From assembly GCA_000004985.1 (NCBI GenBank), contig GG738862.1: a DNA stretch of 64,000 nucleotides; one strand, written 5' to 3'. The notes below the pieces were generated by a model, which searched no databases, was not told the origin of the DNA, and saw only the letters and a list, made by a program, of their open reading frames with translations. Each line of letters begins with the position of its first letter. Within the stretch, counting starts at the first letter, position 1. The DNA is from Naegleria gruberi. Taxonomy: Eukaryota. This document shows positions 3,200 through 61,679 of this stretch, one piece after another. The position numbers were made by a program, and so were the translations under genes.

Positions 3200-3318
3200 G
3201 GCTACGGCCATATCACGATGAATGCACCTCATCCCGTCCGATTTGAGAAGTTAAGCATCGTCGAGCCACATCAGTACTGAGGTTGGAGACAACTTGGGAA
3301 CCTGTGGTGCTGTAGTCT
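3200..3318 (+). rRNA. 5S ribosomal RNA gene
   Basis: GGCTACGGCCATATCACG...CATCCCGTCCGATTTGAGAAGTTAAGC...GGGAACCTGTGGTGCTGTAGTC, about 118 nt. The 5' end pairs with the 3' end as helix I. A Pol III T-run terminator (TTTTT) follows immediately. The same unit, including a ~35-bp upstream box, recurs at 20679 and 25039. Confidence 0.85.
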
Positions 3319-5539: not shown

Positions 5540-6715
5540 TTATTTGGTTTCTGTTAAATTCCTGTAAGCCCATCTCACAATGGCATTTACAACATTACTA
5601 TCGATTCCTTGTATTTGTTTACATGCATGTTCAATTTTTTCTTCTTTTTCTCCTTTAAAGGATATTAAGGCATCCACAACATTTTCCAAATCATATCCAC
5701 AAACCATTTTTGACTGAAGGTCTTCCTCATTGATCCCAACTCCTACATCATAGTCTATCAAAACCATTCTCATTTGTTCCCTTCTCCACGATTTTGGTTT
5801 GCTTTTATCAAGTTTGAATTCAGAAATTTCTAAAAAACTTGTTGCCCTTTGCAAAGTCCCCTCAACTTTGGTTTGCTCTTCTAGTTGTAATTTCATTAAT
5901 TGTAATTTTGACTCAAGACTTGCAACCCTTATTGATGTGTTGTTTTGGGCACGCTCTTTTCGTTTTCGTTTCGTTTTTGTATATTTAAATTCTTTGCTTG
6001 ATTCAGAAAGACCCTCTGAAGAGGAGGTTAGTGGTTCTGAAAGATAGTCTAGGAGTGCTTCAACATTTGAAGTATATCTTTTAATGGCTTCCCAAGATGA
6101 ATGCCTTGAAATATTGCCCTTACCACCCCAAATTCTTTTATAAAACGAAAGAGGTTTATCATTACAGGAATGGATCTGTTCAATACTTGGTATAGTAATT
6201 ACATCTTCTGTTAATGTGACAGAATTATCCTGTCTGCTTTCTTTGACAATGTTAAATCTGTGATGACCAAAGGTTGCAGGTTCTTTGACACAGAATTCAA
6301 TGGGGTAATCAGCTATCCAGCTATTATACAACAACATTAAAAAGGTTTTAATCTTTCTCCTGCTCCTCGAAAAGCATAATACTTTGATAAACGAAGAGGC
6401 ATCTTGTATTTGAGTTGATGGTGGTGAACAATAAATTCTCGACACCTCACCATAAACATCCGCATGCACAGCTAGTGCTCTAATATATCTCTTAACCTGT
6501 GTTTCCCGAGGAATATGTATAAAAAACGACAAGTGGGTTGGCAATTTATCTATTGCTTCTGTCAATGAAACAAGCGCTTCATTTCCGTTCTCCTCTGTAA
6601 TGGTAACATATTGTTCACTCATTTTCTGTAGTTTTGGATTAATTAGATAAAATGGCGGTAAACTTGTTTGGCATTTTTTTACAAATGAAAGTTTGTTAAG
6701 CTTAAGGTTTTGCAA
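5540..6715 (-). CDS. Hypothetical protein (391 aa), possibly with a UBA/CUE-like C-terminal helix bundle
   Basis: Long intact ORF with an ATG start. Basic KRKRK stretch followed by coiled coil. C-terminal MVCGYDLENVVDALISFKG...VVNAIVRWA looks weakly UBA-like. Confidence 0.45.
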   Translation of the reverse strand: MQNLKLNKLSFVKKCQTSLPPFYLINPKLQKMSEQYVTITEENGNEALVSLTEAIDKLPTHLSFFIHIPRETQVKRYIRALAVHADVYGEVSRIYCSPPSTQIQDASSFIKVLCFSRSRRKIKTFLMLLYNSWIADYPIEFCVKEPATFGHHRFNIVKESRQDNSVTLTEDVITIPSIEQIHSCNDKPLSFYKRIWGGKGNISRHSSWEAIKRYTSNVEALLDYLSEPLTSSSEGLSESSKEFKYTKTKRKRKERAQNNTSIRVASLESKLQLMKLQLEEQTKVEGTLQRATSFLEISEFKLDKSKPKSWRREQMRMVLIDYDVGVGINEEDLQSKMVCGYDLENVVDALISFKGEKEEKIEHACKQIQGIDSNVVNAIVRWAYRNLTETK

Positions 6716-7244
6716 TTCGTAAAATAGAGTTTGGTTAAGGTCTGACTTTTGCTAAATTCACTGCATAATAGCCTATATTTTCAGTAAGGAAATTTACTTT
6801 ATTCTACTCTTCCAAATATTCTATCTTCCCAATCATTAAATAAATTCTCCTTCATCGTAATCACCTAGTCTAGGATGAACCACAAGTGAAAAATCACCAC
6901 AATGATTTCCGTCCACCTGAATTCTCTTTTGAAGTACTTTCCTCACATAAATTGGGGTGATAATTCAAATAATTGGAAACTTTTGATGATCCACCAATTA
7001 CGAAAACGAATGGTAGAGGAGCAATTAATATTTACAGATTGGAGCTCTTAATTCCCCCTTATCAAAAACATGGTGAATTATCCTTCTCTCTGAATGATAC
7101 CATTCAAGTTAATTCTTCATATAATTCAAATTGTTGCTATCATCATTATATTGGTCATAAGGTTCTGGTCTTTTTTTCATCAGCTGAGATTTTGATTAAG
7201 GGGAGATTCCTCAAATCAGCAAACAAATTAAACTCTCAAAAAAA

Positions 7245-10200
7245 ATGCGACCTCTCTTTTCCATTCGCTCTGACATTGTTCGGCACTTTTCTTCTGCTAT
7301 CCGACCTTTCTTTAATTCGGCAGAAAAACTGTTCAGAGAAATAATGAAACCACATTTAACCTTTGAAGAATGCGCAAGTCTGTATGCGAATACGAACACA
7401 AAATCAATGAGTCTTGCAACCCTTATGATTACTTTGTGCTCTAAGCATAAACGGTCCGAAGTGGAAAGAAGGAAATATATTGATGAATTGAAAAATATTA
7501 TTCATCATTTTGATGAAGGCTCTGCCACTATTAGAACCATTGATATTGCCATTTCTACATTAGTGCATGAAGAAGGCTATGATGAAGTTGTAACTCTTGT
7601 TAGAAAACTTGGAAATTCATCACTTGCTTCTCTGAAGAGTTTTAGATTGGATCAAATCTTAAAAGTTCTCTCAAGTTATCCGAATGATTTTGAATTGGAT
7701 ATTGCCAAACATATATTTTCTGTTTTACTTGAAAGAAAACAAGTCAGTTTATACGCCTACAATTACTATGCACAGTGTTTGTTTAAATATAATTTTGAAG
7801 AGGGGATGACATTATTACATGAAATGAATGCTCAAAAAATCAAAATTTTTGATAATCTGTTTATTTCCTCATTGACTTTCTCTTTAAAGAAAAACAAACA
7901 AAAAGAAAGTAGAATGATTTGCTCAATGATTGAACATTCCAAAACTACCAACAAAGTGCTATTAACCACAATGGTGAATTTTTATAACAAATGTGAAGAC
8001 TATGATAAGGCAATTGAAATTACTAGAAACGTTAGCAGTGATGGATTGGATACAACTTCATATAATTGTTTAATTCAATCCTATATTGGAAAAAGTGATT
8101 TAAATAGAGCAATAGAGATGCTTGCTGAAATGCAACAGCAAAATATTTCACCCGACTCGGCCACATTTACAATTATTTTAACTGCTTGTGCTGACAGTAA
8201 GAATTACGAACAAGGGTTGAAAGTACTTTAGTTAGAGAACAAAATCGAGCACATCATCTATGAGATTTGAATCAATGATTAATTTCTATAACAAATGTGA
8301 AAAATATGATAAGGCCATTGAATTATTTGATAGCGTTCCAAAAGATAGAGTAGATACGACATCATATAATTGTGTAATTCAATCCTATATTGGAAAAGGT
8401 GATTTAAATGGAGCAATAGAAATACTTGCTGAAATGCAACATCTAAATATTTTACCTAACTCTACAACATTGCTATTATTTTAACTGCTTGTGCTGACAG
8501 CAAGAATTATGAGCAAGGATTGAGGGTGTTGAATATAGTTGGAGAGAACAAACTTTCAAGTAATCATTAGATAACCTCAATGATTAATTTCTATAACAAA
8601 TGTGAAAAATATGATAAGGCCATTGAATTATTTGATAGCGTTCCAAAAGATAGAGTAGATACGACATTATCACAATTGTGTAATTCAATCCTATATTGGA
8701 AAAGGTGATTTAAATGGAGCAATAGAAATACTTGATGAAATGCAACATCTAAATATTTTACCTAACTCTACAACGATGGCTATTATTTTAACTGCTTGTG
8801 CTGACAGCAAGAATTATGAGCAAGGATTGAGGGCGTTGAATATAGTTGGAGAAAGCAAACTTTCTAGTACTCATTGATGACCTCAATGATTAATTTCTAT
8901 AACAAATGTGAAAAATTTGATAAGGCCATTGAATTATTTGATAGCGTTCCAAAAGATAGAGTAGATACGACATCATATAATTGTGTAATTCAATCCTATA
9001 TTGGAAAAGGTGATTTAAATAGAGCAATAGAAATACTTGATGAAATGCAACATCTAAATATTTTACCTAACTCTACAACGATGACCATTATTTTAACAGC
9101 TTGTGCTGACAGCAAGAATTATGAGCAAGGATTGAGGGTGTTGAATATAGTTGGAGAAAGCAAACTTTCTAGTACTCAGTTGATGACCTCAATGATTAAT
9201 TTCTATAACAAATGTGAAAAATTTGATAAGGCCATTGAATTATTTGATAGCGTTCCAAAAGATAGATTAGATACAAGTTTTCACAACTGTTTAATTCAAT
9301 CCTATATTGGAAAAGGTGATTTGGATAGAGCATTTAGTATTTTTAATCACATGAAGGAATACTGTTCTATTCAACCTATTATCCCTGATACAACTACGTA
9401 TTTGGTGTTATTGACAGGTTGTGCAGACAGAGAATCTCTGAGCAAGGATTGAGGGTGTTGAATATAGTTGGAGAAAGCAAACTTTCTAGTACTCAGTTGA
9501 TGACCTCAATGATTAATTTCTATAACAAATGTGAAAAATTTGATAAGGCCATTGAATTATTTGATAGCGTTCCAAAAGATAGATTAGATACAAGTTTTCA
9601 CAACTGTTTAATTCAATCCTATATTGGAAAAGGTGATTTGGATAGAGCATTTAGTATTTTTAATCACATGAAGGAATACTGTTCTATTCAACCTATTATC
9701 CCTGATACAACTACGTATTTGGTGTTATTGATAGGTTGTGCAGATTTAGTATCTCCAACCAAAGGAAAAACATTAATTAAAGAGATACAAGAAAAACAAC
9801 TAGATAGTTCTGAGATGATCAAATCTGCAATGTTGACATTCTATTCCAAAACTTGCAACCAGAAAAAGACAACCGAAATATTAACAGATATACTAAGCAG
9901 CAACCCCTCCATTATGTCATATAATTGTATTTTAGCAAGTTATGCTCGTCATGGACAGGGTAAAAAAGCTTTGAATTTATTCAAGTCTATGGTTAAAAAC
10001 AGTGTACAACCTAATGGAGATACTATCACAATTATTTTGAATGCCTTGTCACATAGTGGAATGGTTGAAGAGGCCATAAAGATTTACAGCACAATAGAGA
10101 CACTCAAAATAATCCCATCACCATCCCATAAAACAGTAATGGTTGATGTTTTTGCGAGGGCTGGATTATTTAATGAAGCTGAACAGCTCATTGGAGACAG

Positions 10201-10828
10201 TACTGAGGCAATACTATGGCGAACACTCATGGCAGGATGTAGAAAGCATAATAATATAGAGATAGCAGAAAAAATATTCGAAATTTTAACAAAAATAGAA
10301 CCAACCGATCCATCTCCTTACATACTGCTATCAAATATTTACATGTTTAAAGGAAATAATACTAAGGCAAGTGAAATAAGAGGTTTGATGGTACAACAAG
10401 GCATTAAAAAAATTCCTGGAATTGTTTATAGTGAAGATAAAGGTACAACCTATCAATTCATTTCTGGTTCCAGTAATTACCCATTGTTTACAGAAGTGGA
10501 GAATAAGCGAAAAGAGATTTATCAAAAAATTATTGGTGCTGGTTATGTATCAGATACTAGATGGGTTACAAACGCTCAACTAATATCTGAGGAGGAAAAG
10601 ATTGATTCTTTATGCAGACACGCAGAAAAAATAGCAATCTCCCATGCTTTTGTTTTGCAACCAAATAGAAAAAAGATACTTTTAACAAGTAATTTGAGAG
10701 TTTGTAATGACTGTCACAATGCCATAGCTTACATTTCAAAAGAAATGAATGTGGAAATAGTTGTAAGAGATGCAAACAGATATCATCACTTCAAAAATGG
10801 TAAATGTAGCTGCAATGATTATTGGTAA
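7245..10828 (+). CDS. PPR (pentatricopeptide repeat) protein with C-terminal E/DYW deaminase domain. The tandem array is interrupted by stops or frameshifts at three unit junctions; the terminal ORF 9419-10828 is intact.
   Basis: Repeated ~35-aa PPR helices (SYNCVIQSYIGKGDLNRAIEILDEMQ...). C-terminus HAEKIAISHAFVLQPNRKKILLTSNLRVCNDCHNAIAYISKEMNVEIVVRDANRYHHFKNGKCSCNDYW matches the plant DYW consensus HSEKLA...RVCxDCH...RFHHFxxGxCSCxDYW. Confidence 0.85.
7950..9520 (+). repeat. Tandem array of about five near-identical ~300-bp units, each encoding ~3 PPR motifs, inside the PPR-DYW locus
   Basis: Units begin near 7950, 8260, 8570, 8874, 9180 and 9470 (MTSMINFYNKCEKFDKAIELFDSVPKDR...EQGLRVLNIVGESKLSSTQL). 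Lesions sit at the same junction position: TAG at 8230, TAG at ~8565, and a 1-nt deletion at ~8868. Confidence 0.8.
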
Positions 10829-11238: not shown

Positions 11239-12370
11239 TCATGTTAAATCTTCATCATCAATATTTGTTTTCATTGTTTGAGAAAACAATTCGTTATTAA
11301 TTTCAGAACGCAACTTTTTTTGATTAATCTCCCAGATGGAAACATTTTGAGGTGATTCAGTAGTTCTTAAATGTTCTAGGCATGCACTATAACATTTGCA
11401 TAGGCAGGTTGAGTGGAAAATGACTTGGTTGAGGGATATTCTGTCTTTCACTTCATTTAGTAGTTCTATTGCTGTGGAAAGAGTTTGTTTTACAATTTCC
11501 AAAGAATGTGAATTTGTTTCTGCAATGTGAATACAGCAATCAGTGAACTCTGCCAATGGAAATTGAATTGTAGCATCCCTTTCGTCAAATGCTGAAACGA
11601 ACGTAACATTTGCACTGTGCTTCCAGTAAACAAATCTAAACATTTTAAAAGCATGTTCCAGAATGGTTGTCATTTGGGATTCAGCACATATTGAGGGATC
11701 ATATGCCCTTGCTAACATAACTAATTTGTAGAGTAGAGCAGGAATATGCGCAGATTGGGGTTGAAGGTGGTTTAAAGAAATAAATATTGCAATGAAGAGC
11801 TGCCAGAAAAAACTCTTGGGTGAGTGAAGGGAAACCAGTGTTGGAAGATGTCATCTCTTCATATAAACGAGAAATAGTATAAAAAACTGAGGTACTGGGA
11901 TGATTCATCTTGAACTTGTTGAGATTTGAAACAAAATTAGTCCATTCCTTGAAAAACTCTGAAGACTTTTTACCACCAGTATCGTGAAAGAAAGCATTGG
12001 AAGTAATGGCCATTGTGACTTTATCAATAACATCCATAGACAAAGGATTTGGATACGTACAAAGAACAGAGCTCGTAGAAACAATGGCTGATTCGATATT
12101 GTCCAAATTGATGAGTGTTTCAATCTTGGATTTTTCTAATTCGCTTAATGGGAAAAAGATGTCTATTTCTCCCTTGATGTGATCCTTATTTTTGTTGGTA
12201 TTAGTTTTTAATAAATTAATAAATTGGCCACCATCAATAGGAGTTCTGCTTAATATTTGTCCGTCTACCCGGTCCTGTCTCAGCATCATGCTTTCATCAT
12301 CATGGACTAACCGTGGTGGTGCTCTTTCATACATTTTTTTCGATTTATTTAAATCAGCACCATGAAACAA
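11239..12370 (-). CDS. Hypothetical protein, about 380 aa. Two adjacent ORFs (11699-12370 and 11239-11718) in different frames overlap by 20 nt.
   Basis: Both ORFs are long and adjacent on the same strand. No clean GT-AG intron at the junction, so a 1-nt frameshift or an unusual intron is implied. Confidence 0.4.
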
Positions 12371-12487: not shown

Positions 12488-13549
12488 TTACAAATTCAAG
12501 ACAATGCTAACAAGTTTGACAGCTTCCTCTGATTGTGGTAAACTAGTTACCAAAGCATTACTTGGTTGCATTTCATGACTCAAATTATAAACACAACTCA
12601 TTCCACAAAAATCAATTCCACATTCATTTCCAATTCGATTGCAAGCCACAAAATATGGAAATTGCTCTTTGGTAGAAATCATGGGTTGTAATCTATCCAA
12701 CCAATACTCGAGACAATCAGTTGAAAACCAATTACACATGAATACCAATACATCAGATCCAATTTCCTTATGGAAAGTGGTCAATTCTCTCAAATTAATG
12801 TCAGTGCAATAATTTGTTCCATTGTCAATATCCATACAAATTCCAACACCAATTCGAATATTTTCTCTATCCATTCCTGTTGGTTTATCCATGGTAGAAG
12901 TGTCGTGTGTGAGAATGCAACGCTCATTCAAGGAATAATCAAATGCTTTGAATGTATCACCTTCCTCTGCCCACACAGTATCCGCCTCAAAAAGGAAATG
13001 TTTTCTGTAGGTCACATAATTACCATTATGTGAAATCACATACATTGAATTATACAATTTACAATTGGATAGCTCATCCTTTCCATCTTGAATCAATTCC
13101 TTTTCTGGAAATCCCAAAAAAACAGTGCAATTGAATTTCTTGGCAAGTGCAAGTCCATATTCGAAATACTCTCCACCAGGACCAGATCTCTCACAGAATG
13201 GAAAGATATCCTCCCTATCTTTGAAAACATAGCCAGAGAGTGTCATTTCTGGAAAGACGAGAAAATCAATTAATTTCGAATCGAGTGGAGAAAGCATGTG
13301 TGAAATGTGTTCCTTGTTAATGTCTATTTGTTTGAATTTTATATCGCATTGACAAATGGCAACGTTTAGTGTGATTTTGCTGTTGCTGTTGGCGTGATGC
13401 AGGGAAGTATCTGATGCTGACATTTTTTTTATTGTGAACTCCGGTTGAAACTCCTTGTTGGATGCTGAAATTGTGTGGAAAAGCATCCACCAATCTGCAT
13501 TTTCAGGTTTTATCGTATTTTGAATGCTGTGGATTACAGTCATATTCAA
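12488..13549 (-). CDS. Carbon-nitrogen hydrolase (nitrilase-superfamily) protein
   Basis: The E-K-C triad is in the expected context: FLVFPEMTLSGY (Glu), YRKHFLF (Lys), IGVGICMDI (Cys nucleophile). 353 aa. Confidence 0.75.
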   Translation of the reverse strand: MNMTVIHSIQNTIKPENADWWMLFHTISASNKEFQPEFTIKKMSASDTSLHHANSNSKITLNVAICQCDIKFKQIDINKEHISHMLSPLDSKLIDFLVFPEMTLSGYVFKDREDIFPFCERSGPGGEYFEYGLALAKKFNCTVFLGFPEKELIQDGKDELSNCKLYNSMYVISHNGNYVTYRKHFLFEADTVWAEEGDTFKAFDYSLNERCILTHDTSTMDKPTGMDRENIRIGVGICMDIDNGTNYCTDINLRELTTFHKEIGSDVLVFMCNWFSTDCLEYWLDRLQPMISTKEQFPYFVACNRIGNECGIDFCGMSCVYNLSHEMQPSNALVTSLPQSEEAVKLVSIVLNL

Positions 13550-27187: not shown

Positions 27188-30100
27188 TTATTTAAAAACA
27201 ATTTTCTGATTGTTAATTAAAACATTGTAAAGATGAGAAAGTTCAAAGAGACACGACTTGTCACGAATGTTAATAATTGTCCTCAAATATTTCACTGCAT
27301 CCCTATTAAATATTCTACACTTGTACAAGAGTGGAAGTCCTTCAAGAGATTCTCTTGAAATAAGTCCAAATTCATCAATAATTGATTGTTGGAATAATTC
27401 CTCTTCCTTAGAGTTTGGTGCATAGGGTTTTGGAGCTATTCCCAAGAATTTACAGAACTCATCTTGTTCTAATTGATTGGCAAAATAGAGAGATCCAGCA
27501 AATATGTGAATGTCAGTCAACAAGTTCAGTAATACCTTGTCAGCAATTTCAAAGTTATTATTTGGTACACTCCATGCTGGTTCATCAATCATGATACGAG
27601 AGGTAGGACTTGTTCGTGAGCAGAACATGAGTATACGAGTTGGTGAAAATTTGTCCAACTTTTGAATATAATGATTAGCCTCTTCTGGACTCAAAATGAT
27701 AATTGTTTGTGAGTATTCACTGTAGGCCAGCCAAGTGACGGGTTTGAAGAATGGACTATTCTTGGAAGCATTCGAAACAGTTTTGAGGTAATTGTCAGTG
27801 GCATAAATGTTGTGATTCCAATTGATTGGAGAGGCCAATAGAGTTTCTTCCAAAGATTCAGATAATGGACGGGCTTTAAGTGGTTGAATGGAGACATCAT
27901 ATTCCTCTTGGAGAATGCCCTTCTTCATGAATAACTCCAAGGTATCGTCAATTACAGTAGCTGCAGGATCACATTTTTGAGGTCTCTCTACAATTCTTTG
28001 CTCTTCCAATTCATTTTCCAATTCTCTTTCCTGTTCCTCGTTGAGTATTTGTGAAAAGATAGTTTTAGAGTGAGCTCTCTTATTAATATTTGCTCTAATT
28101 AATTCCAAAGAAGGAGAAATATCTATGGAAAAGAGTTTTGAAATGTGAAGGGCTCTCTTTTCAAAGATACTGAGAAGGTATTGTTCATATCTTTCCTGTC
28201 CATAAAAATCACTAATTTTGAATAATTCATTTTCAGTGCACTGCTCTGCATATTCATCCATTTTAAGCTTGGCATCATATTCGGTTTTGGCAATTTTTTT
28301 AGAGTAGAAGAGCAATCCACTAGTTGACCATTGTAGATAGTGATCATTTTCCATTTGTACTCTATTGTGAATGGACCATTTCAATATTCTTTCTTGGATT
28401 GTAAGCTGTTGTGAAAAATTGTCATTAATAAAACGATCAACTTCTTGACTTGCCCAGAAGGCAACAGAGTGTCCTTTTCCTAATAATCTCATTCTCATAC
28501 AGGCTTGGCATAGTCTCTCAAATGTAAGACCATTACCCAGTGTTACGGCTGCTTTCATTCCAGTAGGGAATTTGAGATCTGTACCTCTTGTGTGAATATC
28601 ATCAAGATAAATCAAACATCTTTCCAATTTGTTCTTATAGGGAGATATTTCGAATGGAATTATCAAACCATTTCTATCCAAAACAACCAATTGATCTTGG
28701 GTGTTGAAAAATACAGCTGCATCTGCAACTTGTTCAGTCACAGAGTTTAACCAGTATTTGCAAAGATTCATATTACTCATTTCAAGCATGAGCGCTCCCA
28801 CATCAATTAATACTCGTTGGTTATTAGCATTCAATTCAGATATAAAGTTAGTAATCTCTGCTTGTTTGACAACATGATATTCTTCATTCTCTTTAGAGAG
28901 GAGAATTTTCAATAATTCTCCAGTAGTTCCCCTAAGGGAAGGAAGCTCATTTTCCTTAATGGTGATTGGCAAAAGGAATGCCTTCGTTCCAGAGAATCCA
29001 CAAGTAGGGAATTTACTTTCCTTACAAAGATTCCAAGCTGATGCTGAAATCTTTCTATCAAACTGTTTACATTCTCTTGAGAATACAGCTCGATTGAGGA
29101 AAAAGTCAATCACTGCCATGTTATTTCTTAAAGCTGGGTATAAAACTTGTGTCTTTTGAATAAAGTCTTCCAAGTTAATGCTCTTGTAATGTTTGATTGA
29201 TTCGGGAATATTTTTCATTTCATAGACCCATTTCTCATATTCCACATCGGGAGATTCTATTCTTTGAAGGAATTGGAAAACCACATCTAATTGTTCATTA
29301 GTCAATCCAGAATAATAATAACTCAATAATGTTAAAAGAATTGCAATATCTGGATGCCCAAACTCGGCTCTATCAGAAGGGCAATCCTTAGCTCTGTAAG
29401 GAACAGCCACCAATCTCTTGATATTAGGATTGACTCCATAATTAACTCTCCATCTCTTATTGAGCGAGTGATACAATAATCCAAAAGCAAATATACCTCT
29501 CATTAATAAAATTTCCGATTTTAAAATATCATTTGACATGGTAGAAAGAATATCCAACTCAGTTTGTGAAATGGTTTCTGCTGTTAATATCTTCTTAATA
29601 TTTTCTCGGTCGTTCAATTTGTAAGGAATGAAAATTTCACTTGCCCTTCCTTCTAAAATATCATCTACAATTAAATCAACTAATTGATTGTAAGATGTCT
29701 TATCTAAAACTCTAAAATAAGGGAAAGTATGAGAATCTCCTCTAGTAAAGAATTCAACATGTGAAGCGCCAAGTTTGTTGAATAAACTTTCAGCATGCTT
29801 TCTAACAATTCTCATAATTTTTTGAGGTAATATCCATCTCAGATTTCCCATATCCAAATCTTTTTGTTCTCCCACAGTATAAATTAATTGATATCTAACA
29901 TGAAGAATTTCATCACTTTCATCGAGAATATCTCTGCAGTGTTTTTCGAAATAGTCTTGTAATCTCAAATAATCGTGAGCAATTGATTCCTTAGCAATTG
30001 CTTTTTCAATTCCTTTCAATTCAAATGACAATCTATATTCTGGAACAGTGATAAGAATGCTCCTTTCCTTTTCCATTACTTCCAATACACTTCTAATAGT

Positions 30101-33100
30101 CTTTAAATCTGTTGCAGTAATTTTCAAATCTCTGCTAAATGGTAGATAGATTACCTTTCTATTAAGAATTCCACCAAGTTTAAATGAAAGATATGTATAA
30201 TTGGTCTGGAGTAATTGTTTTAGTACAGTCAATCGAGGAATTTGTGCTTCGTTAAATGCAAGGACTAACATTGGAATAATTACCGATGTTTTGCCTTCTC
30301 CCATATTGAATTGGAGAACCATGTTTGTACTTGAGGAAAGCATGTGATTTGCAACTTCATATTGTCTTGGTCTAATCATCAAATCGAGTTCAATTTCCAA
30401 TAATAACCATTGGGGGAACTTTTTAGGGCTCCAATTAACATGTCCACTATTTTCAAGTTCTCTATCAAATTGTACCTTCTTATTTGGATCATTGTTCATA
30501 AGTTTCAATCTGTTGTATCGTTGTTCCAAAGTTGTTAATACAGCAAGAGCTCCAATCAAGTCTTTACAACCACAATACTGTTCAGTATCTGATATCAAAT
30601 CCTGGAATAACAGATATGGGCATAAACGATTTGAAATTCCACATTCTGCTATTGCTGATTTTGCAGTATCGGAAAAATTAGAAAGTTTACATTCCAGAGC
30701 TTTCCAAATTTTTTCTTTCAATTCCAATATGACAGAAATATTAGGCAGTTGTGCTGAGGTTACTTGGTTTGGGTTATTGGCTGTCAAATAACTGCCCTCC
30801 AGGTCTAGAATGTACTCGTTGTAAAGAGGGTCATGAGAGTCATGTGAAAATAATTGAACATCATGCTCCAAGGTTTTGATTACATCCTTCTCACAATATG
30901 GTGATATGTCACCTTTTTCAAAAATGTATTTAGCCATTTCTGGAACATCAGCTAATCCAAAAACAAGCTTATTTCCATCTTCTTGTACCTTGGTAAAATT
31001 CTGAATATCAAATGTTTGATTTGTTTCGTTTGGCTGTAAATTCTCCATTGTAATGTTGACTATTGTTATGTCACCTTTAGCATTATTCATCATATTTTGG
31101 AGAACTGATTTAATACCTTGTAAAAATTTTTGAACTCGTTCTCTATTGTAAAGTGTAGATAAATAGTTATTGATATGATCGACAGCTTCACTCTTATCAA
31201 TAAAATTTAATCTTCCAAATTTGTTTTTCTCCATTAATTGCTCCTTATTGAATGCTATTTCAGCAAACCTTAGGCATGTTCTAATATCATTATTAAACGT
31301 TTCATGGTCATCCTCATCATCAAATGTTAGTCTACTATTTGCCGCTTTCAATAAATTTATAACGTCATCTTCATCAAAATCAGTACATTCCAAATCATCA
31401 ACACTTGAAAAAATTAAAGGTGAATGTTGATTTCTAAAAGAATTGGCAAATAAATTAATAATCATGAAACAAGCCAACATTTTCTTTTTTTCTGGGAATA
31501 CATAACCGAGATAAGATATGAAAACTTTGAAATCGGCAGGTGTTTGAGTTTTGGCTGCTTCATAGAGTGTGAGGAAATCATCTTCGAGGTCAATATTTTT
31601 CCAATCATACAGGAAGTTCTCCACTTTTTTTTCTGGATTGAACGAGGACACTGAATTGATAAGTTCAACTGCTGAAATTTTCTGAAAATTATTTTTTGAA
31701 ATAGATGCCAAGTACTTGCAAGCAACATAGGATGTCATTGAAGAGATCTTGATTGTTTCAACATAATTGACATCTTTTTGAGAACTAATTCTTAAACGTA
31801 CAATAGGATTGTAATAATTAAGGTAGGCTTTGTAATACCTTCTTGCCAAGAAGAGAGGATCTTCCTCGTCACTCTTTTTAACACTACTGCCACTTTCCCC
31901 GTCTAGGAAAATTGTCTCCTCTGACTTTTTAACAATAGAGTCCACAATTAGTTTGTAAGCATCCAAAAGACATAAACTTGATAAATTTGTTTTAGGCCAT
32001 GTTATCTTCTCATTGACTTTCATTTTTGGTGGATGGAAGCTTCTGTCAGGAGAAATAGATGAAATGGCCTCTAGTAGAGAGGTTTCCAATTTTGAGAGAG
32101 GTCTCATTGGCCAACATCTTGCAGATTTCAAAATTTTGAGAGCTGATTCATAACCTGTTAATTTTGTGAATGGATCGACTATTACAGAGCTGGTGATACC
32201 ATGAAGAAGTGCCAAAAAAAGCCAGGACGATAAGCTATCATTAGCTTCTAATTGCCACATGTACTCATTAACAGAATAGGTGAAATAAGGAGTATCTATT
32301 GATTTAGTCATATCGATACGTGTTAAATGGTGATGTTTGAATTTTTCTGTTGAAATTTCACCATTTGGTACAAGCACAATCTTTTTAGAAGAGTTTGGAT
32401 TTTCGTCCTTCAGCATTATGGCATTAGAAAGTCCAATTAATGTACCACAATAAAATGAATCGCAAACTATCATTGAAAACTCCTTTGATCGTAAATAGCT
32501 GTTGTTCACCAATTCAAAGTGAAGTCCCAAACGTGGAAGTTCCACTAACACTTCATCATTATTTGCAAATATATGAATATTATGTTTGAGTTCAATTCTT
32601 GAAATTGATTTCAATACTTCTGTATACGTTTCTCCAAAATAATTCATGAGTACTCTTTCAGTACCAACTTCTTTCAATTTCTTTTCTGTGACATCGAGTT
32701 TGTAAGCAATGCTACTTTTAAATTTTGGAGAAAAGAAAGAAATAGGTCTGAAAAGCACACAATTAGTTGTAACATCATACCAATGACTGTAGTTTTCCAC
32801 AAATTGAGCTGGAAGATCATATTCAAAAATTTTGTGAGACAATAAAATAGATGTTTCAGAGCCATGCTTCAGAATGAATTGCATACTTTTTCTAAACTCC
32901 AGTTGACAGCCGTCAATATCGTACGATGTCACAAAAGCATCTGGACGTGTGGCTTGTTGCACATCAAACACAAAATTACCAAACACTCTCTTATACTTTG
33001 CATCTGCTGTGATAGGATCAGGAAGTCTTCCAATTGGATTTCCATTGACAAGGAATGTTCCTCTAACAATATTGAAGGCAATTGCTGTAAATCCCGAATC

Positions 33101-36100
33101 GGTAAGAAGTGCTGCCTTAACCCATCCATTGGCTACCTTTTCCCATTTTGCATATGGATCAGTGTATCCAGACCAATAGAACTCAGCAAATATATTCAGT
33201 GCAATAGATGGTAATCCAATATATTTTTCAATTAAACAAGCAGTTTGGTAATAGCGTCTCAATAGGAAAACTTTGAGAGTGTTTTTAGGAAATGTGAATT
33301 GTTTGCTCAACACAGTGTTGTCATGAATTCTAGAAACACATTTACACCAAATTTCTACGTTTGTGTGAATAGCTAATTGAGGTTTTAGTACTGAAGGTTC
33401 CAAATTGAATGTAAGAACTGCACAACAATTAATGTCAATCAGATTTTGTCTAATTTTGGCTATTTCTAGAGGTGGAGAATCAGTCATTGTAACAATAAGC
33501 GTTTCAATGTCTTTGGACCACTTCAATATCAAGTTTCTGATTTTGGTCAAAAATTCAATGTACTTGTCAATAATTGATTGAGTAATATGAATATTGATAA
33601 CCCTCAGAGCAGCAACTATTAAAACTAGTACAACTTGGTATGATTTCCAGTTTTCCTTATACTTTTCCAATATAGATTCGAGCAATTCCAAAAGTTTTGA
33701 GCAAAACATTGAATTTTGTAATGGCTCATTAACTTCTCTGTACCACACATCAGAATCGTTTGGGCAATTTTGAAGCATGGATTGAAGCAGTAGAACAGTA
33801 ACATCTGGCCTCTGAATGGAAAGTTTTTCATTGGCCAAACATCTCACTATATTGTGCCACTGTAGTCTAAATCCTGCCCGTAGTGAACCATATTCTACAA
33901 ACTCGGCCAAACTTAGATTTGGATGACAGAGTGCTTGGTTGGCTATTACTTGATTTTGAGAGTGATCGAAACCACTAATAGCCCATTCCAGATTGGCATA
34001 TTCAGGTGATTCAATTTTAAAGGTAAAATTACTTTCCTTCATTGATGAATGAGTCATTGTGTATGTGTGGTCGTTACCAACTGTTGCCACTAGGTCACAT
34101 CCATTTGGTTTTAAAAAGCTATCCTCTGAACTCTGTACATGCTGCCGTGAGTAGTGAGTGTCAGAAAATCCTTTCACAGTACTACCAATAGTTGAGCAAG
34201 GTGGACGTCCAGATGTGAAATTCTCAAGGTAGCCTTGTTCTCTCCAAGTGCTTGGAATTTTATCTGTTTTCTGAACTCGGCATTGAAGCTGAGCCATACA
34301 GAAGAATGCATCTCTATAATTCATATAATAATTCGGAATTAATAATTCAAAAACAATTGCATATTGTTCCACATATCCTGAAGGTAAAAAATCTTCAAAA
34401 ATTGAAACATAAGTATTGTCCAAACTTCTTTTCAATGAGCATTTGGAGCAATATTTGGAATGCCTTGTATAGCCATGAACATTAATGAAATATTCACATT
34501 CCATATTATTGTATCTGTTATAGTTTCTTTGATAATCATTCTTTCCTCTCCTTACTTCTTCAAGCTTTTGTTTTTTTCTTTCTTCATTCTCTTTTAGAAT
34601 TTGATCCAATGTTTGTCTCATTGTCTTGTCGTGTCTCACAAAAAGGACACAATAGGAGTTAGCACTGAGTTTGTTTGTCAAAAAATCACATGGGCGTTTG
34701 GTTGTCTTATCGAAACGTGTGAAATATTGTTCCAATTCGAGAGCAAATTTCATATCACTCGGAGAATCGAGTAATAAATATTTAAATGTAGATACATCCA
34801 CTCCTGTTGAATATTCTTCTAACAGTTTGGAGCATGAAATGGCTATAATGTGCATAGCTTTCAAGAAGCCAAATAATGTCAGTATGAATCTGCTCTTTCC
34901 TATTGGATCGTTTTCATAGAATTTCGAACCTAAATTGTAATAGGCATCCATTTTCTTATATACTGTATCAGAGAATGATTTTCCCTTCTTACTTTCATCA
35001 ATGATTGTGAATAGCTCGTCTCTAACCCATGATTCATACTCCATTAATTGTCTTGTTGTGTAAATGTTATCATGTTCTTCCTTAGGAAGTGATGAATTCA
35101 AAAGACTGATTTCCCTTTGTTCAAAAAGGGTTTTGTTGTCCTTAATCTTTTGCAGAGAGTTACTTAAATTTTGAGAGCAAGAATCGGTATTCTTTGGAAA
35201 ATTAGTGTTAAATGTATCATTCTTTTTGATTTCCTGAATTGTTACATCCATTCTTTTTTGGATGAATTCCTTTGTGTCTCTAGTTGTAAATAATGCTGAT
35301 GACTTGGATACGTGAAGCATATCCTTTAACTTTTGATTATTCACCTCTTTGCTTAAGGTACTTTTAAGGTTTTCTAACTTGGTCGCTCTCAATGAAATTT
35401 TGATTATCATTTGCATTAGATAATCATTACTCATATTAATATACGTTCTCGCTTTTTTGCATAAATAGCTCATAAAATCCAGCATGAAAAGTTTGTAAAG
35501 AAACTTCCCCTGAATAGGTCCATATATTTTGTTGAATTTGTAATGCAGTGATGCTTTCAGGGAAATCCAGAAAGGAGATCTTCTTGTGCCATCCTGTTTA
35601 GGCCTCACAAAACTTCTCACTTTCTTTTTAATATTATTAGCTACAATATTAGTAGGACCACCAGAGAGTAGTGAAAGCATCCATTCTGTTATTAAAATTG
35701 GAGAAGAAACTTCTCTATCTTCCGAAACAACTGTTCCTTTCCTCTTTGTTTTTGCTGAACTCATTTCCTGACTTTCAGTCAAATAAGTTAATTGATTTAA
35801 AAATGATTGACTTTCTAATACTGGAATATTATCATCCAGTACTGAAACTGATAACTCGGGATAAGTCATGCAACAAATGTCACATTTATAAATATTTGCA
35901 TTCTTTGGATGACAAGTAAATGCTGACGCAATATACTTTGGTGTACTATCACTCGAATATTCGAACATTAACAAACAATTATTTCCAGTTAAATAGAACG
36001 AAATGCAATCATTACTTTCAGTCAGGTAAGATGTAATTGTTTTTCCCTTAGGAATGTCAATATCATTCAAATTAGATTGCACTGCAGCAATATTTGCAAA

Positions 36101-36415
36101 ATATTTATCCAACCACTTTAAGGAAATACCAGATAGTAAATTATCCGAATGTTCCTTTCTAAATTCCATCAAATGGTGCAAAACTTCCATATTTTCATCC
36201 AATCCACTTTGTTTTATCGTGTAAAACACATCGGAATACATTCTAAACATTGACTCTGATGCCGTCTTACTCCTCTGTGATGACGATAACGTACCAGAAG
36301 CCTTTGTTGGCTGATTATTGTTTGCATTATTTGCCGTTGTGTTAGTATTTGCTGTTGTTGAAGTTTGTTGCGAAGAAGAATTCGCTGATGGAACAAAAAC
36401 CATTTTTTTTTTCAA
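27188..36415 (-). CDS. Giant intronless protein (3075 aa) with an internal P-loop-like GEGKT motif. Resembles the DUF3638/DUF3645 family of giant proteins.
   Basis: Single uninterrupted 9.2-kb ORF. FNMGEGKTSVIIPMLVLAFN is Walker-A-like. About 90 aa downstream lies DILDESDEILHV, an acidic Walker-B/DEAD-like patch. The N-terminus is low-complexity and Asn/Thr-rich. Confidence 0.6.
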   Translation of the reverse strand: MKKKMVFVPSANSSSQQTSTTANTNTTANNANNNQPTKASGTLSSSQRSKTASESMFRMYSDVFYTIKQSGLDENMEVLHHLMEFRKEHSDNLLSGISLKWLDKYFANIAAVQSNLNDIDIPKGKTITSYLTESNDCISFYLTGNNCLLMFEYSSDSTPKYIASAFTCHPKNANIYKCDICCMTYPELSVSVLDDNIPVLESQSFLNQLTYLTESQEMSSAKTKRKGTVVSEDREVSSPILITEWMLSLLSGGPTNIVANNIKKKVRSFVRPKQDGTRRSPFWISLKASLHYKFNKIYGPIQGKFLYKLFMLDFMSYLCKKARTYINMSNDYLMQMIIKISLRATKLENLKSTLSKEVNNQKLKDMLHVSKSSALFTTRDTKEFIQKRMDVTIQEIKKNDTFNTNFPKNTDSCSQNLSNSLQKIKDNKTLFEQREISLLNSSLPKEEHDNIYTTRQLMEYESWVRDELFTIIDESKKGKSFSDTVYKKMDAYYNLGSKFYENDPIGKSRFILTLFGFLKAMHIIAISCSKLLEEYSTGVDVSTFKYLLLDSPSDMKFALELEQYFTRFDKTTKRPCDFLTNKLSANSYCVLFVRHDKTMRQTLDQILKENEERKKQKLEEVRRGKNDYQRNYNRYNNMECEYFINVHGYTRHSKYCSKCSLKRSLDNTYVSIFEDFLPSGYVEQYAIVFELLIPNYYMNYRDAFFCMAQLQCRVQKTDKIPSTWREQGYLENFTSGRPPCSTIGSTVKGFSDTHYSRQHVQSSEDSFLKPNGCDLVATVGNDHTYTMTHSSMKESNFTFKIESPEYANLEWAISGFDHSQNQVIANQALCHPNLSLAEFVEYGSLRAGFRLQWHNIVRCLANEKLSIQRPDVTVLLLQSMLQNCPNDSDVWYREVNEPLQNSMFCSKLLELLESILEKYKENWKSYQVVLVLIVAALRVINIHITQSIIDKYIEFLTKIRNLILKWSKDIETLIVTMTDSPPLEIAKIRQNLIDINCCAVLTFNLEPSVLKPQLAIHTNVEIWCKCVSRIHDNTVLSKQFTFPKNTLKVFLLRRYYQTACLIEKYIGLPSIALNIFAEFYWSGYTDPYAKWEKVANGWVKAALLTDSGFTAIAFNIVRGTFLVNGNPIGRLPDPITADAKYKRVFGNFVFDVQQATRPDAFVTSYDIDGCQLEFRKSMQFILKHGSETSILLSHKIFEYDLPAQFVENYSHWYDVTTNCVLFRPISFFSPKFKSSIAYKLDVTEKKLKEVGTERVLMNYFGETYTEVLKSISRIELKHNIHIFANNDEVLVELPRLGLHFELVNNSYLRSKEFSMIVCDSFYCGTLIGLSNAIMLKDENPNSSKKIVLVPNGEISTEKFKHHHLTRIDMTKSIDTPYFTYSVNEYMWQLEANDSLSSWLFLALLHGITSSVIVDPFTKLTGYESALKILKSARCWPMRPLSKLETSLLEAISSISPDRSFHPPKMKVNEKITWPKTNLSSLCLLDAYKLIVDSIVKKSEETIFLDGESGSSVKKSDEEDPLFLARRYYKAYLNYYNPIVRLRISSQKDVNYVETIKISSMTSYVACKYLASISKNNFQKISAVELINSVSSFNPEKKVENFLYDWKNIDLEDDFLTLYEAAKTQTPADFKVFISYLGYVFPEKKKMLACFMIINLFANSFRNQHSPLIFSSVDDLECTDFDEDDVINLLKAANSRLTFDDEDDHETFNNDIRTCLRFAEIAFNKEQLMEKNKFGRLNFIDKSEAVDHINNYLSTLYNRERVQKFLQGIKSVLQNMMNNAKGDITIVNITMENLQPNETNQTFDIQNFTKVQEDGNKLVFGLADVPEMAKYIFEKGDISPYCEKDVIKTLEHDVQLFSHDSHDPLYNEYILDLEGSYLTANNPNQVTSAQLPNISVILELKEKIWKALECKLSNFSDTAKSAIAECGISNRLCPYLLFQDLISDTEQYCGCKDLIGALAVLTTLEQRYNRLKLMNNDPNKKVQFDRELENSGHVNWSPKKFPQWLLLEIELDLMIRPRQYEVANHMLSSSTNMVLQFNMGEGKTSVIIPMLVLAFNEAQIPRLTVLKQLLQTNYTYLSFKLGGILNRKVIYLPFSRDLKITATDLKTIRSVLEVMEKERSILITVPEYRLSFELKGIEKAIAKESIAHDYLRLQDYFEKHCRDILDESDEILHVRYQLIYTVGEQKDLDMGNLRWILPQKIMRIVRKHAESLFNKLGASHVEFFTRGDSHTFPYFRVLDKTSYNQLVDLIVDDILEGRASEIFIPYKLNDRENIKKILTAETISQTELDILSTMSNDILKSEILLMRGIFAFGLLYHSLNKRWRVNYGVNPNIKRLVAVPYRAKDCPSDRAEFGHPDIAILLTLLSYYYSGLTNEQLDVVFQFLQRIESPDVEYEKWVYEMKNIPESIKHYKSINLEDFIQKTQVLYPALRNNMAVIDFFLNRAVFSRECKQFDRKISASAWNLCKESKFPTCGFSGTKAFLLPITIKENELPSLRGTTGELLKILLSKENEEYHVVKQAEITNFISELNANNQRVLIDVGALMLEMSNMNLCKYWLNSVTEQVADAAVFFNTQDQLVVLDRNGLIIPFEISPYKNKLERCLIYLDDIHTRGTDLKFPTGMKAAVTLGNGLTFERLCQACMRMRLLGKGHSVAFWASQEVDRFINDNFSQQLTIQERILKWSIHNRVQMENDHYLQWSTSGLLFYSKKIAKTEYDAKLKMDEYAEQCTENELFKISDFYGQERYEQYLLSIFEKRALHISKLFSIDISPSLELIRANINKRAHSKTIFSQILNEEQERELENELEEQRIVERPQKCDPAATVIDDTLELFMKKGILQEEYDVSIQPLKARPLSESLEETLLASPINWNHNIYATDNYLKTVSNASKNSPFFKPVTWLAYSEYSQTIIILSPEEANHYIQKLDKFSPTRILMFCSRTSPTSRIMIDEPAWSVPNNNFEIADKVLLNLLTDIHIFAGSLYFANQLEQDEFCKFLGIAPKPYAPNSKEEELFQQSIIDEFGLISRESLEGLPLLYKCRIFNRDAVKYLRTIINIRDKSCLFELSHLYNVLINNQKIVFK

Positions 36416-59461: not shown

Positions 59462-61679
59462 ATGAAGATTCCCCTGCCGACACAAAGTTATGAACAACAA
59501 GAACATTTAGTTAGTACTGACGAGGAAGAGGAAGATGATTTTTCATCATCTCTTTCGTATTGTTCCTCTTCGTATGTGATGGACCAAATTATGATGAAAA
59601 GGAAGAATTCGTTTAGTGGTGGTAGTTATGGAGCAGCACATCAACAATTGTATGGTAATGAAGAGGAGGAAAGGAATCATGTCATTTGGTGTGATGTGTG
59701 TAAACAGGAAGGATTTGAAGAAGCTGCCACTCATTACTGTTCAACATGTTTCAAGGAAAATCAGAAAGATAAGAGTAATCGAGTGATTGTTGTTCAACAA
59801 AATGATGAAAGGGAGAGTTTGGAAGAAGAGGAAGACGAATCGAATGTAACAATATGTCACTATTGTCAATATCATGCCAATAGACATAATAGGAGAGATC
59901 CACTGCATCAAATAGTGTCCATTAGACAGGAAAGGATATTTGCATCATCGAGCTTGTTACGTTCTGGTTCATTCATGTCGAGTGCTTCATCTTTTGATTC
60001 GAACATGTCCAATTCATCACCAATTCCTTTTTTCACAACTGGTAGTACATCAACTGGACCACTGTTCAATTATGGTTGTAATGGTAATAACAGCAGTAGT
60101 AATAACATGTTGGCGAGTAGTAATATTGTCAGATATTGTTTTAAACATGAAGAGGCCATTCCACTTAATACCTACTGCAGAACTTGTGAATTGGTAATTT
60201 GTTCTCAGTGTGCCTTGTCCAAAGCACATAAAGGACACTTGATTGAGTTAATCAAGGATGTAGAAAATAGTGAAAGAATGCAATTGGGTGAACATGTTAA
60301 GGTTCTTAAACAATCATTCGAAGAATGGGAAGAGGAGTTCAGTGTCCATGATGAAGACTTGGAGGAAGAACTGACACTAATTGATGAACGAGAAGAATCA
60401 CTCACATATCAGATTAATTTAGCATTTGATGAAATGAAGGAATGTCTAGAAAAGAGAAGAAATGTTCTCATAGAACAAGTGGAACAATCATCTCATGAAA
60501 ACAAACAATCTGTTCATAACATTCTCAAAATGAAGAAGGAATCCAAAGAGTTACTTGGAGAGTTTGACAATTTGGAAGAGATGAGTGGATTTGATGTAAT
60601 TGATAAAAAGTTGAATAGACTCAATCTTATCATTGTACTATACGAAAAGATGCAAAAAGAATTCAAGACGAGAAAACTCTCTGACCTTCATAGAATATCT
60701 CTGGACAAGTTTGCAAGTAGGAAGAATATTATTCAACATCACATTGATGAGCTAGGTCAAGTTGTCAAGAAGACAAATGATGATTCTGGTCCATCATCGA
60801 CTTCTGTACCTATCAATTTCAAACATATAGAAACTATTGGATCAGCTAGCAATTCAAATAATAAGCATGTGCAGTTTAGCTTTCCATCCGATGTTAAAAT
60901 TTCTCATCAACATGCATGTATTGTTGTAGCAGATTTTGGCAACAAGAAGATTCGTGTTTTGGATTTGATAACTAGGCAGTTCAAGTACGATATTGATACT
61001 GCGTCAGCTCCAAGAAACATTTCAATAGATCACACAGATGACGACTCTATTATTGTATCATGTGCAGATCACTGTGTTTACAAGTATTCATTACTTAATC
61101 AGGGAAAGTCAATAGTTTGGAGGAGCGGATCGCCAAATGAGAGTGGAAATTCTCAACATCTTTTCAAATATCCAAGAGCAAGTATTGTGGATATAGATGG
61201 CAATGTATACGTGTGTGATCATGGTAATCACCGAATCAAGGTATTAACATCTAGCAATGGCCAATTTGTGAAAATTATTGGAATAGATCAAAATTCAATT
61301 TAAACGGCCTTGGGGTGTTTGTATTGATAAGGATGGAAATTTAGTTATTAGTGAGAAGAAGAATAATAGAATACAAAGAATATCAAAGGAAGGAGATATT
61401 TCACTCTTTATGTTAGGAAAGAAAGGATCATCTCAATACGAATTTAACAAACCGAGAGGTATATTAATTGACAATCACACTGAGCATATGTTTATTTGCG
61501 ATGGAGCTAATCATAGAATACAGGTATTTTCCAAAGCAGGAAAATTAATCAAAACCTTTGGTTCTGAAGGTTCCAAATCAAGCCAATTATTTCAACCTCA
61601 TAGTTTATGTTTTGATTCAGTGAGTGGTCAATTATTTGTAGCGGATTGTGGAAATCACCGAGTACAGATATTCCAATAA
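59462..61679 (+). CDS. TRIM-like protein with B-box zinc fingers, coiled coil and C-terminal NHL repeats. The frame is disrupted near 61285-61300.
   Basis: B-boxes CDVCKQEG...HYCSTCF and CFKHEEAIPLNTYCRTCELVICSQCALSKAHKGH, then a long coiled coil. NHL blades FSFPSDVKISHQHACIVVADFGNKKIRVLD, YVCDHGNHRIKVL, RPWGVCIDKDGNLVISEKKNNRIQ, FNKPRGILID...ICDGANHRIQVF and VADCGNHRVQIF. The stop at 61301 is bypassed by a 1-nt frame change into ORF 61410-61679. Confidence 0.7.

Follow-up and report, generated by a model that had tools for sequence, protein, structure and literature searches.

Seven disabling lesions in the P-L-S repeat array of a DYW-type pentatricopeptide repeat locus of Naegleria gruberi

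In plants, PLS-class DYW proteins of the pentatricopeptide repeat (PPR) family are site-specific mitochondrial C-to-U RNA-editing factors. A locus of this type lies at 7245-10828, on the plus strand, of the 64,000-nucleotide stretch of Naegleria gruberi DNA analyzed here (the window; contig GG738862.1 of assembly GCA_000004985.1), and the reference annotation has three separate predicted proteins there, NAEGRDRAFT_66501, 66502 and 66503. The question raised by this locus is whether it still encodes an editing factor or only the pieces of one. A preliminary description, made from the sequence alone, had presented it as a plant-type DYW factor outside land plants; the identity was right, but the surprise had already gone, because such factors have been known in Naegleria since 2010. 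The passages of PMC4202320 that deal with Naegleria cite the publication of DYW-type PPR genes in N. gruberi (Knoop & Rudinger 2010, FEBS Lett 584:4287) and the demonstration of mitochondrial C-to-U editing in this organism (Rudinger et al. 2011, RNA 17:2058), and they set 10-11 DYW-PPR genes against two mitochondrial C-to-U sites. A passage of a 2026 preprint likewise cites DYW genes and editing in N. gruberi. We are inclined, if only slightly, to the view that the locus was once one nuclear PPR-DYW gene and that its terminal part is now an orphaned remnant, not a working editing factor. The reading of NAEGRDRAFT_66501, 66502 and 66503 as pieces of a single locus, expanded by repeats and in decay, appears to be new; no paper naming these gene models was returned by a literature search for the accession numbers, the primary papers on the family lying outside its reach.

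Three consecutive open reading frames (ORFs) occupy the locus, at 7245-8231, 8874-9452 and 9419-10828 (all +; the coordinates of features are collected in Table 1), and Pfam matches to PPR, PPR_1, PPR_2 and PPR_3 are spread over all of them. The N-terminal ORF is composed of a presequence-like N-terminus, an orphan region (amino acids 1-236) and the first repeat unit, U1. PPR matches were obtained at its amino acids 212-319, no Pfam family matched amino acids 1-237, and no homologue of the orphan region was found outside N. gruberi. By a crude composition test, only this ORF among the three begins with an Arg-rich N-terminus (net +3). The middle open frame itself (8874-9452) is 192 amino acids long, and the third one (9419-10828) has 469 amino acids when counted from a TTG and 442 when counted from its first ATG, at 9500. 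The terminal ORF (P0001) is 100% identical to an N. gruberi "predicted protein" on a 502,116-bp scaffold.

The third ORF ends, as had been proposed, in a DYW cytidine-deaminase domain. A profile search returned PF14432 (DYW_deaminase) for amino acids 375-469 with E=2.8e-34 over the full profile (1-93/93), and the deaminase motifs HAE, CNDCH and HHFKNGKCSCNDYW are present. An E motif was matched as well (PF20431, E=2.6e-16, amino acids 277-335), and Pfam gave no match to a separate E+ motif in this ORF at E<=0.01. The C-terminal 192 residues can be aligned over their full length with the PPR-DYW structures 9KFX, 7O4E and 7W86, the synthetic PPR-DYW protein 9KFX being matched over the E2/DYW region with E=2.6e-46 and the DYW1 domain structure 7W86 with E=3.7e-24. 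In this alignment HxE, CxDCH and CSCxDYW are intact, and the same motifs are invariant in two intact relatives, P0002 and P0003. About 7 PPR-like motifs are left in the 442-amino-acid ORF. The features that mark a member of this family, namely a DYW domain with its zinc motifs, an E motif and an alternating P/L/S tract, are all found at the locus; an uninterrupted ORF linking targeting sequence, PPR tract and deaminase is not, owing to seven lesions.

The nearest paralogue is NAEGRDRAFT_72252 (P0002, 536 amino acids), with 47% identity by BLASTP and 50% in the alignment, followed by a protein from an ENA metagenome (P0003, 44%) and then by plant proteins with 31-36% identity over 442 amino acids. 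The models of two paralogues, P0002 and P0203, start inside a PPR motif (MSFYTKCG... and MSEKAKEIYFSMKEYGVSPD..., respectively) and show no presequence-like N-terminus; further family members may thus be 5'-truncated, mis-annotated or broken upstream. A metagenome scan with the single protein found no relative, and a scan with an alignment as the query gave 80 loci, all 31-38% identical and of plant or moss type, which are uninformative on the protist clade.

The PPR tract is built as a tandem array, for which Tandem Repeats Finder (TRF) reported a period of 306 at 7965-9649 (5.5 copies, 88% matches, score 2180). Such an array of ~300-bp units had been described earlier, with about five units; cut in register, it has six, the last of which (U6) runs into the unique C-terminus. 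The period of 306 bp corresponds to 102 codons, that is, to one P-L-S triplet, which we parsed by hand alignment to the PPR consensus, with approximate motif borders, into S (~33 amino acids), P (35) and L (34). Identity reaches 96% between U3 and U4 and 93% between U2 and U3, with U2-U4 being 93-96% identical mutually and U1 ~74% identical to the rest, and tblastn with U4 recovers every unit of the array. With head-to-tail units in register, identity graded from 74 to 96%, and sequence that differs between two scaffolds, the array scores as a product of unequal exchange. The proposal that the tract is an array decaying via unequal exchange is favored by its units, by its lesions and by a 317-bp duplication, the last two of which are described below. 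Collapsed paralogues, which had been offered as another possibility, are unlikely, since the window holds no other family member and a second scaffold keeps the order N-terminus-U1-U2-U3; dispersed or collapsed paralogues were rejected on the former ground, for the whole 64-kb window. In PPR proteins, the fifth and last residues of a motif specify the RNA base. These residues are alike in U2-U4 (T/D in the S motif, E/D in U2; N/N in the P motif), so the triplicated tract would specify a periodic RNA, an unlikely target for a site-specific factor.

Seven disabling lesions, of which two are TAG stops and five are frameshifts, fall between 8229 and 9438, and the PPR-sense frame follows the path 0 > 1 > 0 > stop > 0 > 1 > 0 > 2. 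Three had been noted earlier (TAG at 8229-8231, TAG at 8568-8570 and a 1-nt deletion at ~8868), and all three are present; to these are added a frameshift at ~8259, a -1 at ~8470, a +1 at ~8668 and a -1 at 9428-9438. They had also been placed at the same position of the repeat unit, which is true for the TAG at 8568 and the -1 at 8868, both at the CAG-TTG site of the L-to-S boundary, but not for the TAG at 8229, which sits ~13 codons upstream of that site in unit register. Lesions 4 and 6 (numbered as in Table 1) may go back to a single ancestral loss of G that the unit carried with it when copied; one insertion and one substitution are enough to turn the "CATT-GATGACC" type into CATTAGATAACC. 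The lesions are clustered, with 7/7 inside 1,204 of the 3,581 coding nucleotides (p=0.007 by simulation, and p=0.047 when they are collapsed to five independent events). None of the indels in the window falls in a homopolymer run, and the window contains no N gaps. TAG terminates 3 of the 23 long open frames in the window and is thus an ordinary stop, for which reason its reassignment was rejected.

The 317-bp direct duplication bears on the origin of these lesions. Its duplicate stretches, 9122-9412 and 9439-9729, are identical at 291/291 positions, and all differences between the copies are confined to an 11-26-nt mosaic junction composed of both U4-type and U6-type sequence. Its length is not a multiple of 3, being one base short of an in-frame 318. 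These features are direct evidence for what would be a very recent imprecise exchange between neighboring unit tails. At lesion 5, a TCACAA hexamer found elsewhere only in U5 and U6 is placed, with one extra base, inside sequence of the U2/U4 type, which looks like a short misaligned gene-conversion patch. The duplicated tract was formerly under purifying selection, because dN/dS is 0.26 for U4 vs U1 (21 synonymous and 29 non-synonymous changes). For young unit pairs the values are 0.42 and 0.74, from small counts (8-11 substitutions); these are compatible with relaxed selection, in a comparison that is underpowered.

A second N. gruberi copy is carried by a 59,947-bp scaffold. Its protein, NAEGRDRAFT_54547 (P0123, 455 amino acids), falls in the 90% cluster of the N-terminal ORF; it agrees with the window at 294/295 positions (99.7%) through the N-terminus and U1, and then, with a sharp fall from the first lesion on, at 131/160 (82% of amino acids). 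It has Ser at both TAG positions and stays in frame across the U1/U2 junction (VLSLKNKIKHITIRMLNAMINFY) and U2. P0123 thus reads through lesions 1-4, yet it ends at the U3 frameshift (...SQLFNSILYWKR, then a stop), where P0123 closes with DTTSSQLFNSILYWKR and the window with DTTLSQLCNSILYWKR, each followed by a stop. Because both scaffolds carry the U3 frameshift, lesion 5 is taken to be real and old, and it would either predate the split of the two copies or have been exchanged between them. As judged from this pair of sequences, lesions 1-4 occur in the window copy alone, and a full-length protein is not encodable by either copy.

The upstream neighbor of the PPR gene, NAEGRDRAFT_66500, also has a twin on the second scaffold (NAEGRDRAFT_76175, 94% identical, 314/334 amino acids), and the second copy is therefore syntenic, being either a haplotig that has diverged or a segmental duplicate of recent origin. 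Naegleria has been described as mainly a heterozygous diploid (PMC9928731). Across 5543-8228 of the window, the 94% identity of the neighbor gene stands against the 294/295 of the PPR N-terminus and U1, with a boundary at ~8228. This contrast suggests either that a tract here has recently undergone gene conversion or loss of heterozygosity, or that the N-terminal ORF is strongly constrained. The protein collection holds no DYW-ending fragment more than 47% identical besides P0001, and the second scaffold probably stops within the array or lacks annotation past it. Exact-sequence look-ups of P0001, the 328-amino-acid ORF, P0123 and P0002 in other assemblies gave none on record.

The closest relatives outside Naegleria, 44-47% identical, are two loci (L001 and L082) of an AT-rich protist in the ENA assembly ERZ27315067. 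In L001, a tandem array of PLS units is cut off from an intact 444-amino-acid DYW ORF by a 1-base loss (GGAAAGAAA to GGAAAAAA). This break creates GGA AAA AAC, which resembles an A_AAA_AAC slippery heptamer, and may reflect a genuine lesion, an error of assembly or recoding. In L082, a 519-amino-acid PPR ORF and a 164-amino-acid E/DYW ORF are split by an A5-to-A4 loss near 3285, a second frameshift lies near the 5' end, and an in-frame deletion of 2 residues (6 nt; IL--YPEKMAM vs LCQHAEKMAI) has removed the catalytic His of the HxE motif, a residue still present in the window gene. L082 thus reads as a clear pseudogene of the same subfamily. The indels of both loci fall in short A-runs, unlike those of the window; the two are single-sample metagenome contigs, in which A-run indels could be errors, whereas the His deletion is an unlikely one. 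All 3 of the 3 protist loci with readable DNA are hence frame-broken and one of them is clearly dead, which fits a birth-and-death picture of DYW families.

On the reading that we favor, the ancestral protein would have had ~1,190 amino acids, with a presequence-like N-terminus, the 236-amino-acid orphan region, six P-L-S triplets, P2-L2-S2, E and DYW. Its triplets would have arisen by tandem duplication of the 306-bp (102-codon) unit via unequal or illegitimate exchange. The repeat itself may then have acted as a mutagen, imprecise junctions and misaligned conversion patches introducing frameshifts, so that the lesions would be the scars of imprecise unit duplication and of short conversion patches. 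The 442-codon E/DYW ORF would have been orphaned recently, the 317-bp duplication being the latest event to sever it, and it would seem intact owing to the youth of the decay and to the concentration of mutation in the repeats.

Several observations weigh against this reading. The flanks are free of lesions over 328 N-terminal and 442-479 C-terminal codons, ~5% of random substitutions in them would make a stop, and such clean flanks could reflect continuing selection, not youth. Until the 317-bp duplication, an ORF of 544 codons ran from ATG 8877 to the DYW end with the architecture of P0002 (536 amino acids), which fits a maintained shorter gene, and the homologue P0003 (444 amino acids) has the same architecture as the present 442-amino-acid ORF. 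The absence of a presequence is weak evidence, given that a start within a PPR motif is also seen in the models of P0002 and P0203. The independent copy confirms only 1 of the 7 lesions, and the other six are without such confirmation.

An alternative that we regard as possible but rather doubtful is that the functional gene consists of the 3' ORF only, with a 442-amino-acid (ATG 9500) or, recently, a 544-amino-acid (ATG 8877) protein serving as an active editing factor or a trans-acting deaminase; everything 5' of it, namely the N-terminal ORF and U2-U3, would then be debris of array turnover. The contrast between 1.33-1.44 kb without a lesion and seven lesions in the adjacent 1.2 kb argues for it, as do the catalytic, zinc-binding and E motifs, all intact here whereas the dead L082 has lost its His, and the length and motif order, which match P0003 and resemble P0002. 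Plants, too, have short trans-acting DYW proteins, such as DYW1 (7W86). On the other hand, repeat-driven mutagenesis explains the clustering of lesions equally well, and the 3' ORF has been freshly truncated by the 317-bp duplication, has only about 7 PPR-like motifs left and lacks a presequence-like N-terminus, though the paralogue models lack one too. Redundancy and decay are to be expected with 10-11 DYW genes for two sites, as counted in the Naegleria passages of PMC4202320, and the second scaffold has no annotated DYW fragment, hence no sign of conservation.

An artefact of assembly or sequencing, in which some or all of the lesions and the 317-bp duplication would stem from mis-assembly of the repeat out of two haplotypes, the actual gene being intact, seems improbable to us. 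Units that are 93-96% identical, together with two divergent copies, do make a hard case for assembly, the 317-bp copies are perfectly identical, and 6/7 lesions have no independent confirmation. The U3 +1 frameshift, however, is common to two independently assembled scaffolds, which argues against the assembly error considered in the preliminary description. In addition, the indels of the window lie outside homopolymer runs, two of the lesions are clean nonsense codons, the window has no N gaps, and misassembly usually collapses repeats rather than expanding them. L001 and L082, which come from a different project, show similar breaks and the 6-nt in-frame loss of His. Rescue at the level of RNA or translation, by a long intron, an exon skip or recoding that bypasses the lesions, is very unlikely. 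In its intron form, a donor at GTAAGA 8197 or GTACTT 8223 would be joined to an AG near 9430-9500, linking the N-terminus to U6-E-DYW; that the scarred 1.2-kb tract has been "intronised" in this way, with the decayed repeats removed from the mRNA and the editing factor rescued, is an idea to which we give hardly any credence. Both flanks are intact, the 294/295 agreement of N-terminus and U1 between the copies, against 94% for the neighbor, may hint at N-terminal constraint, GTAAGA is confined to U1 (the other units have GCAAGA), and one ORF would be restored by any of 275 single GT-AG introns. This number is, however, about the chance expectation, and none of these introns restores the proper PPR register. 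In the second copy, more than 120 codons of the supposed intron read in frame as PPR coding sequence without a stop. The reference annotation has three distinct gene models, two of the lesions are stops, which lie beyond the reach of frameshifting, and the window indels are not at slippery sites. Intron rescue was rejected as the main explanation because the region is coding sequence in the second copy, and programmed frameshifting because of the two stop codons, the position of the window indels off slippery sites and the lost His of L082.

Table 1. Positions of the features of the PPR-DYW locus in the window and of two related protist loci
Feature	Position	Strand or contig	Details
N-terminal ORF	7245-8228 (stop 8229-8231)	+	328 aa (amino acids); NAEGRDRAFT_66501 / XP_002678363; exact match to P0121
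Whole array U1-U6	7956-9810	+	PLS-triplet units, aligned in register
U1	7956-8259	+	304 bp
U2	8260-8564	+	305 bp
U3	8565-8870	+	306 bp
U4	8871-9176	+	306 bp
U5	9177-9493	+	317 bp
U6	9494-9810	+	317 bp
Lesion 1	8229-8231	+	In-frame TAG, U1 tail (L-motif helix B); second copy Ser
Lesion 2	8256-8262 (~8259)	+	Frameshift 0 to 1, codon lost just downstream; second copy in frame
Lesion 3	8468-8472 (~8470)	+	-1 at U2 L-motif start, frame 1 to 0; second copy intact
Lesion 4	8568-8570	+	In-frame TAG, U2/U3 junction, CAT TAG vs consensus CAG TTG; second copy Ser
Lesion 5	8664-8672 (~8668)	+	+1 in U3 P motif; common to second copy
Lesion 6	8866-8869 (8868)	+	-1 (G of CAG), U3/U4 junction, frame 1 to 0
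Lesion 7	9428-9438	+	-1, mosaic junction of 317-bp duplication, frame 0 to 2
Middle annotated fragment	8886-9452	+	188 aa; NAEGRDRAFT_66502 / XP_002678364; covers U4 and U5
317-bp direct duplication	9122-9755	+	TRF period 317, 2 copies, 97%
Intact terminal ORF	9500-10828	+	442 aa; order S-P-L-S-P2-L2-S2-E-DYW
NAEGRDRAFT_66503 / XP_002678365	from ATG 9668	+	Annotated model, 386 aa, within terminal ORF
E motif	10247-10423	+	PF20431
PG-box-like PGIVYSEDKGTTYQF	10415-10459	+	Between PPR tract and DYW domain
DYW cytidine-deaminase domain	10541-10825	+	PF14432
HAE (HxE motif)	10619-10627	+	HAEKIA spans 10619-10636
CNDCH (CxDCH motif)	10703-10717	+	Zinc-binding motif present
HHF...CSCNDYW	10784-10825	+	C-terminal DYW signature
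L001	1-1774	k141_1309238	Tandem array of PLS units, anchors spaced 309 then 308 bp apart; runs off contig start
L082	1312-3820	k141_310422	DYW-type PPR locus, three ORFs, two frameshifts

Upstream of the PPR gene, the intergenic sequence contains a 16-bp tandem repeat (2.1 copies, 6800-6833). Two overlapping ORFs of the minus strand, 11239-11718 and 11699-12370, occupy 11239-12370; they have no Pfam match and look like one gene split by an intron or a frameshift, and the exact translation of 11242-11718 is absent from the protein collection. A carbon-nitrogen hydrolase of the nitrilase superfamily (PF00795, E=3.5e-19) is encoded downstream of the PPR locus at 12488-13549 (-), and farther on, at 27188-36415 (-), a single open frame of 3,075 amino acids with DUF6606, DUF3638 and DUF3645 predicts a giant protein to which these domains assign no function. 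Two other proteins of the window have close matches elsewhere: an NHL-repeat protein at 59462-61303 (+) (P0128, a NAEGRDRAFT model) shares a 90% cluster with a 738-amino-acid ENA protein from a 5.7-kb contig, and P0126 (41284-42963 (-)) shares one with a Logan fragment from a 12.9-kb contig. These clusters show that N. gruberi-like DNA exists in other public assemblies, none of which covers the PPR locus.

The three protist loci, that of the window and the two related ones, show members of DYW families that were amplified by duplication of PLS triplets and then broken. In the window, the PPR tract can be followed as it grows by whole P-L-S triplets and is destroyed, probably via imprecise junctions and misaligned conversion patches. 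Some DYW "genes" may therefore be remnants, which would be a partial answer to the excess of genes over sites noted in passages of PMC4202320. The reference models 66501, 66502 and 66503 are flagged here as fragments of one locus, which is relevant when Naegleria editing factors are counted or tested.

Comparison with known systems puts these features in perspective. The other DYW genes of N. gruberi come from the same organism and likewise have PLS-type PPRs, an E motif and a canonical DYW domain; in the present locus, by contrast, seven lesions in the array have left three separately annotated fragments. A similar excess is found in another heterolobosean, Acrasis kona, for which the passages of PMC4202320 on its DYW family give 12 DYW genes for 2 confirmed sites, with genes far outnumbering sites and a lineage-specific expansion, a setting where copies in decay are to be expected. 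Acrasis is a different lineage that possibly acquired DYW genes separately, and the same passages make no mention of pseudogenisation. Land-plant PPR-E-DYW factors (OTP86/At3g63370, 7O4E; the synthetic 9KFX) have the same P-L-S...P2-L2-S2-E-DYW order and have in common with the window gene the signature HxE...CxDCH...HxxxF...CSCxDYW; editing factors of Physcomitrium have been shown to be active in E. coli (PMC6397227). Unlike the land-plant factors, the window gene has no contiguous ORF from targeting sequence to deaminase, its PPR tract consists largely of near-identical triplets with the same code residues, and no E+ match was obtained at threshold. If only the terminal ORF is expressed, the product would be a short protein dominated by E/DYW, similar to the short trans-acting DYW1 (7W86). 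DYW2 and MEF8 are further short trans-acting DYW proteins of plants, and we know of no partner E-class PPR protein in Naegleria. The two mitochondrial editing sites of N. gruberi are reported to lie in cox1 and cox3. Unlike proteins of the DYW1 type, the 442-amino-acid ORF keeps about 7 PPR-like motifs.

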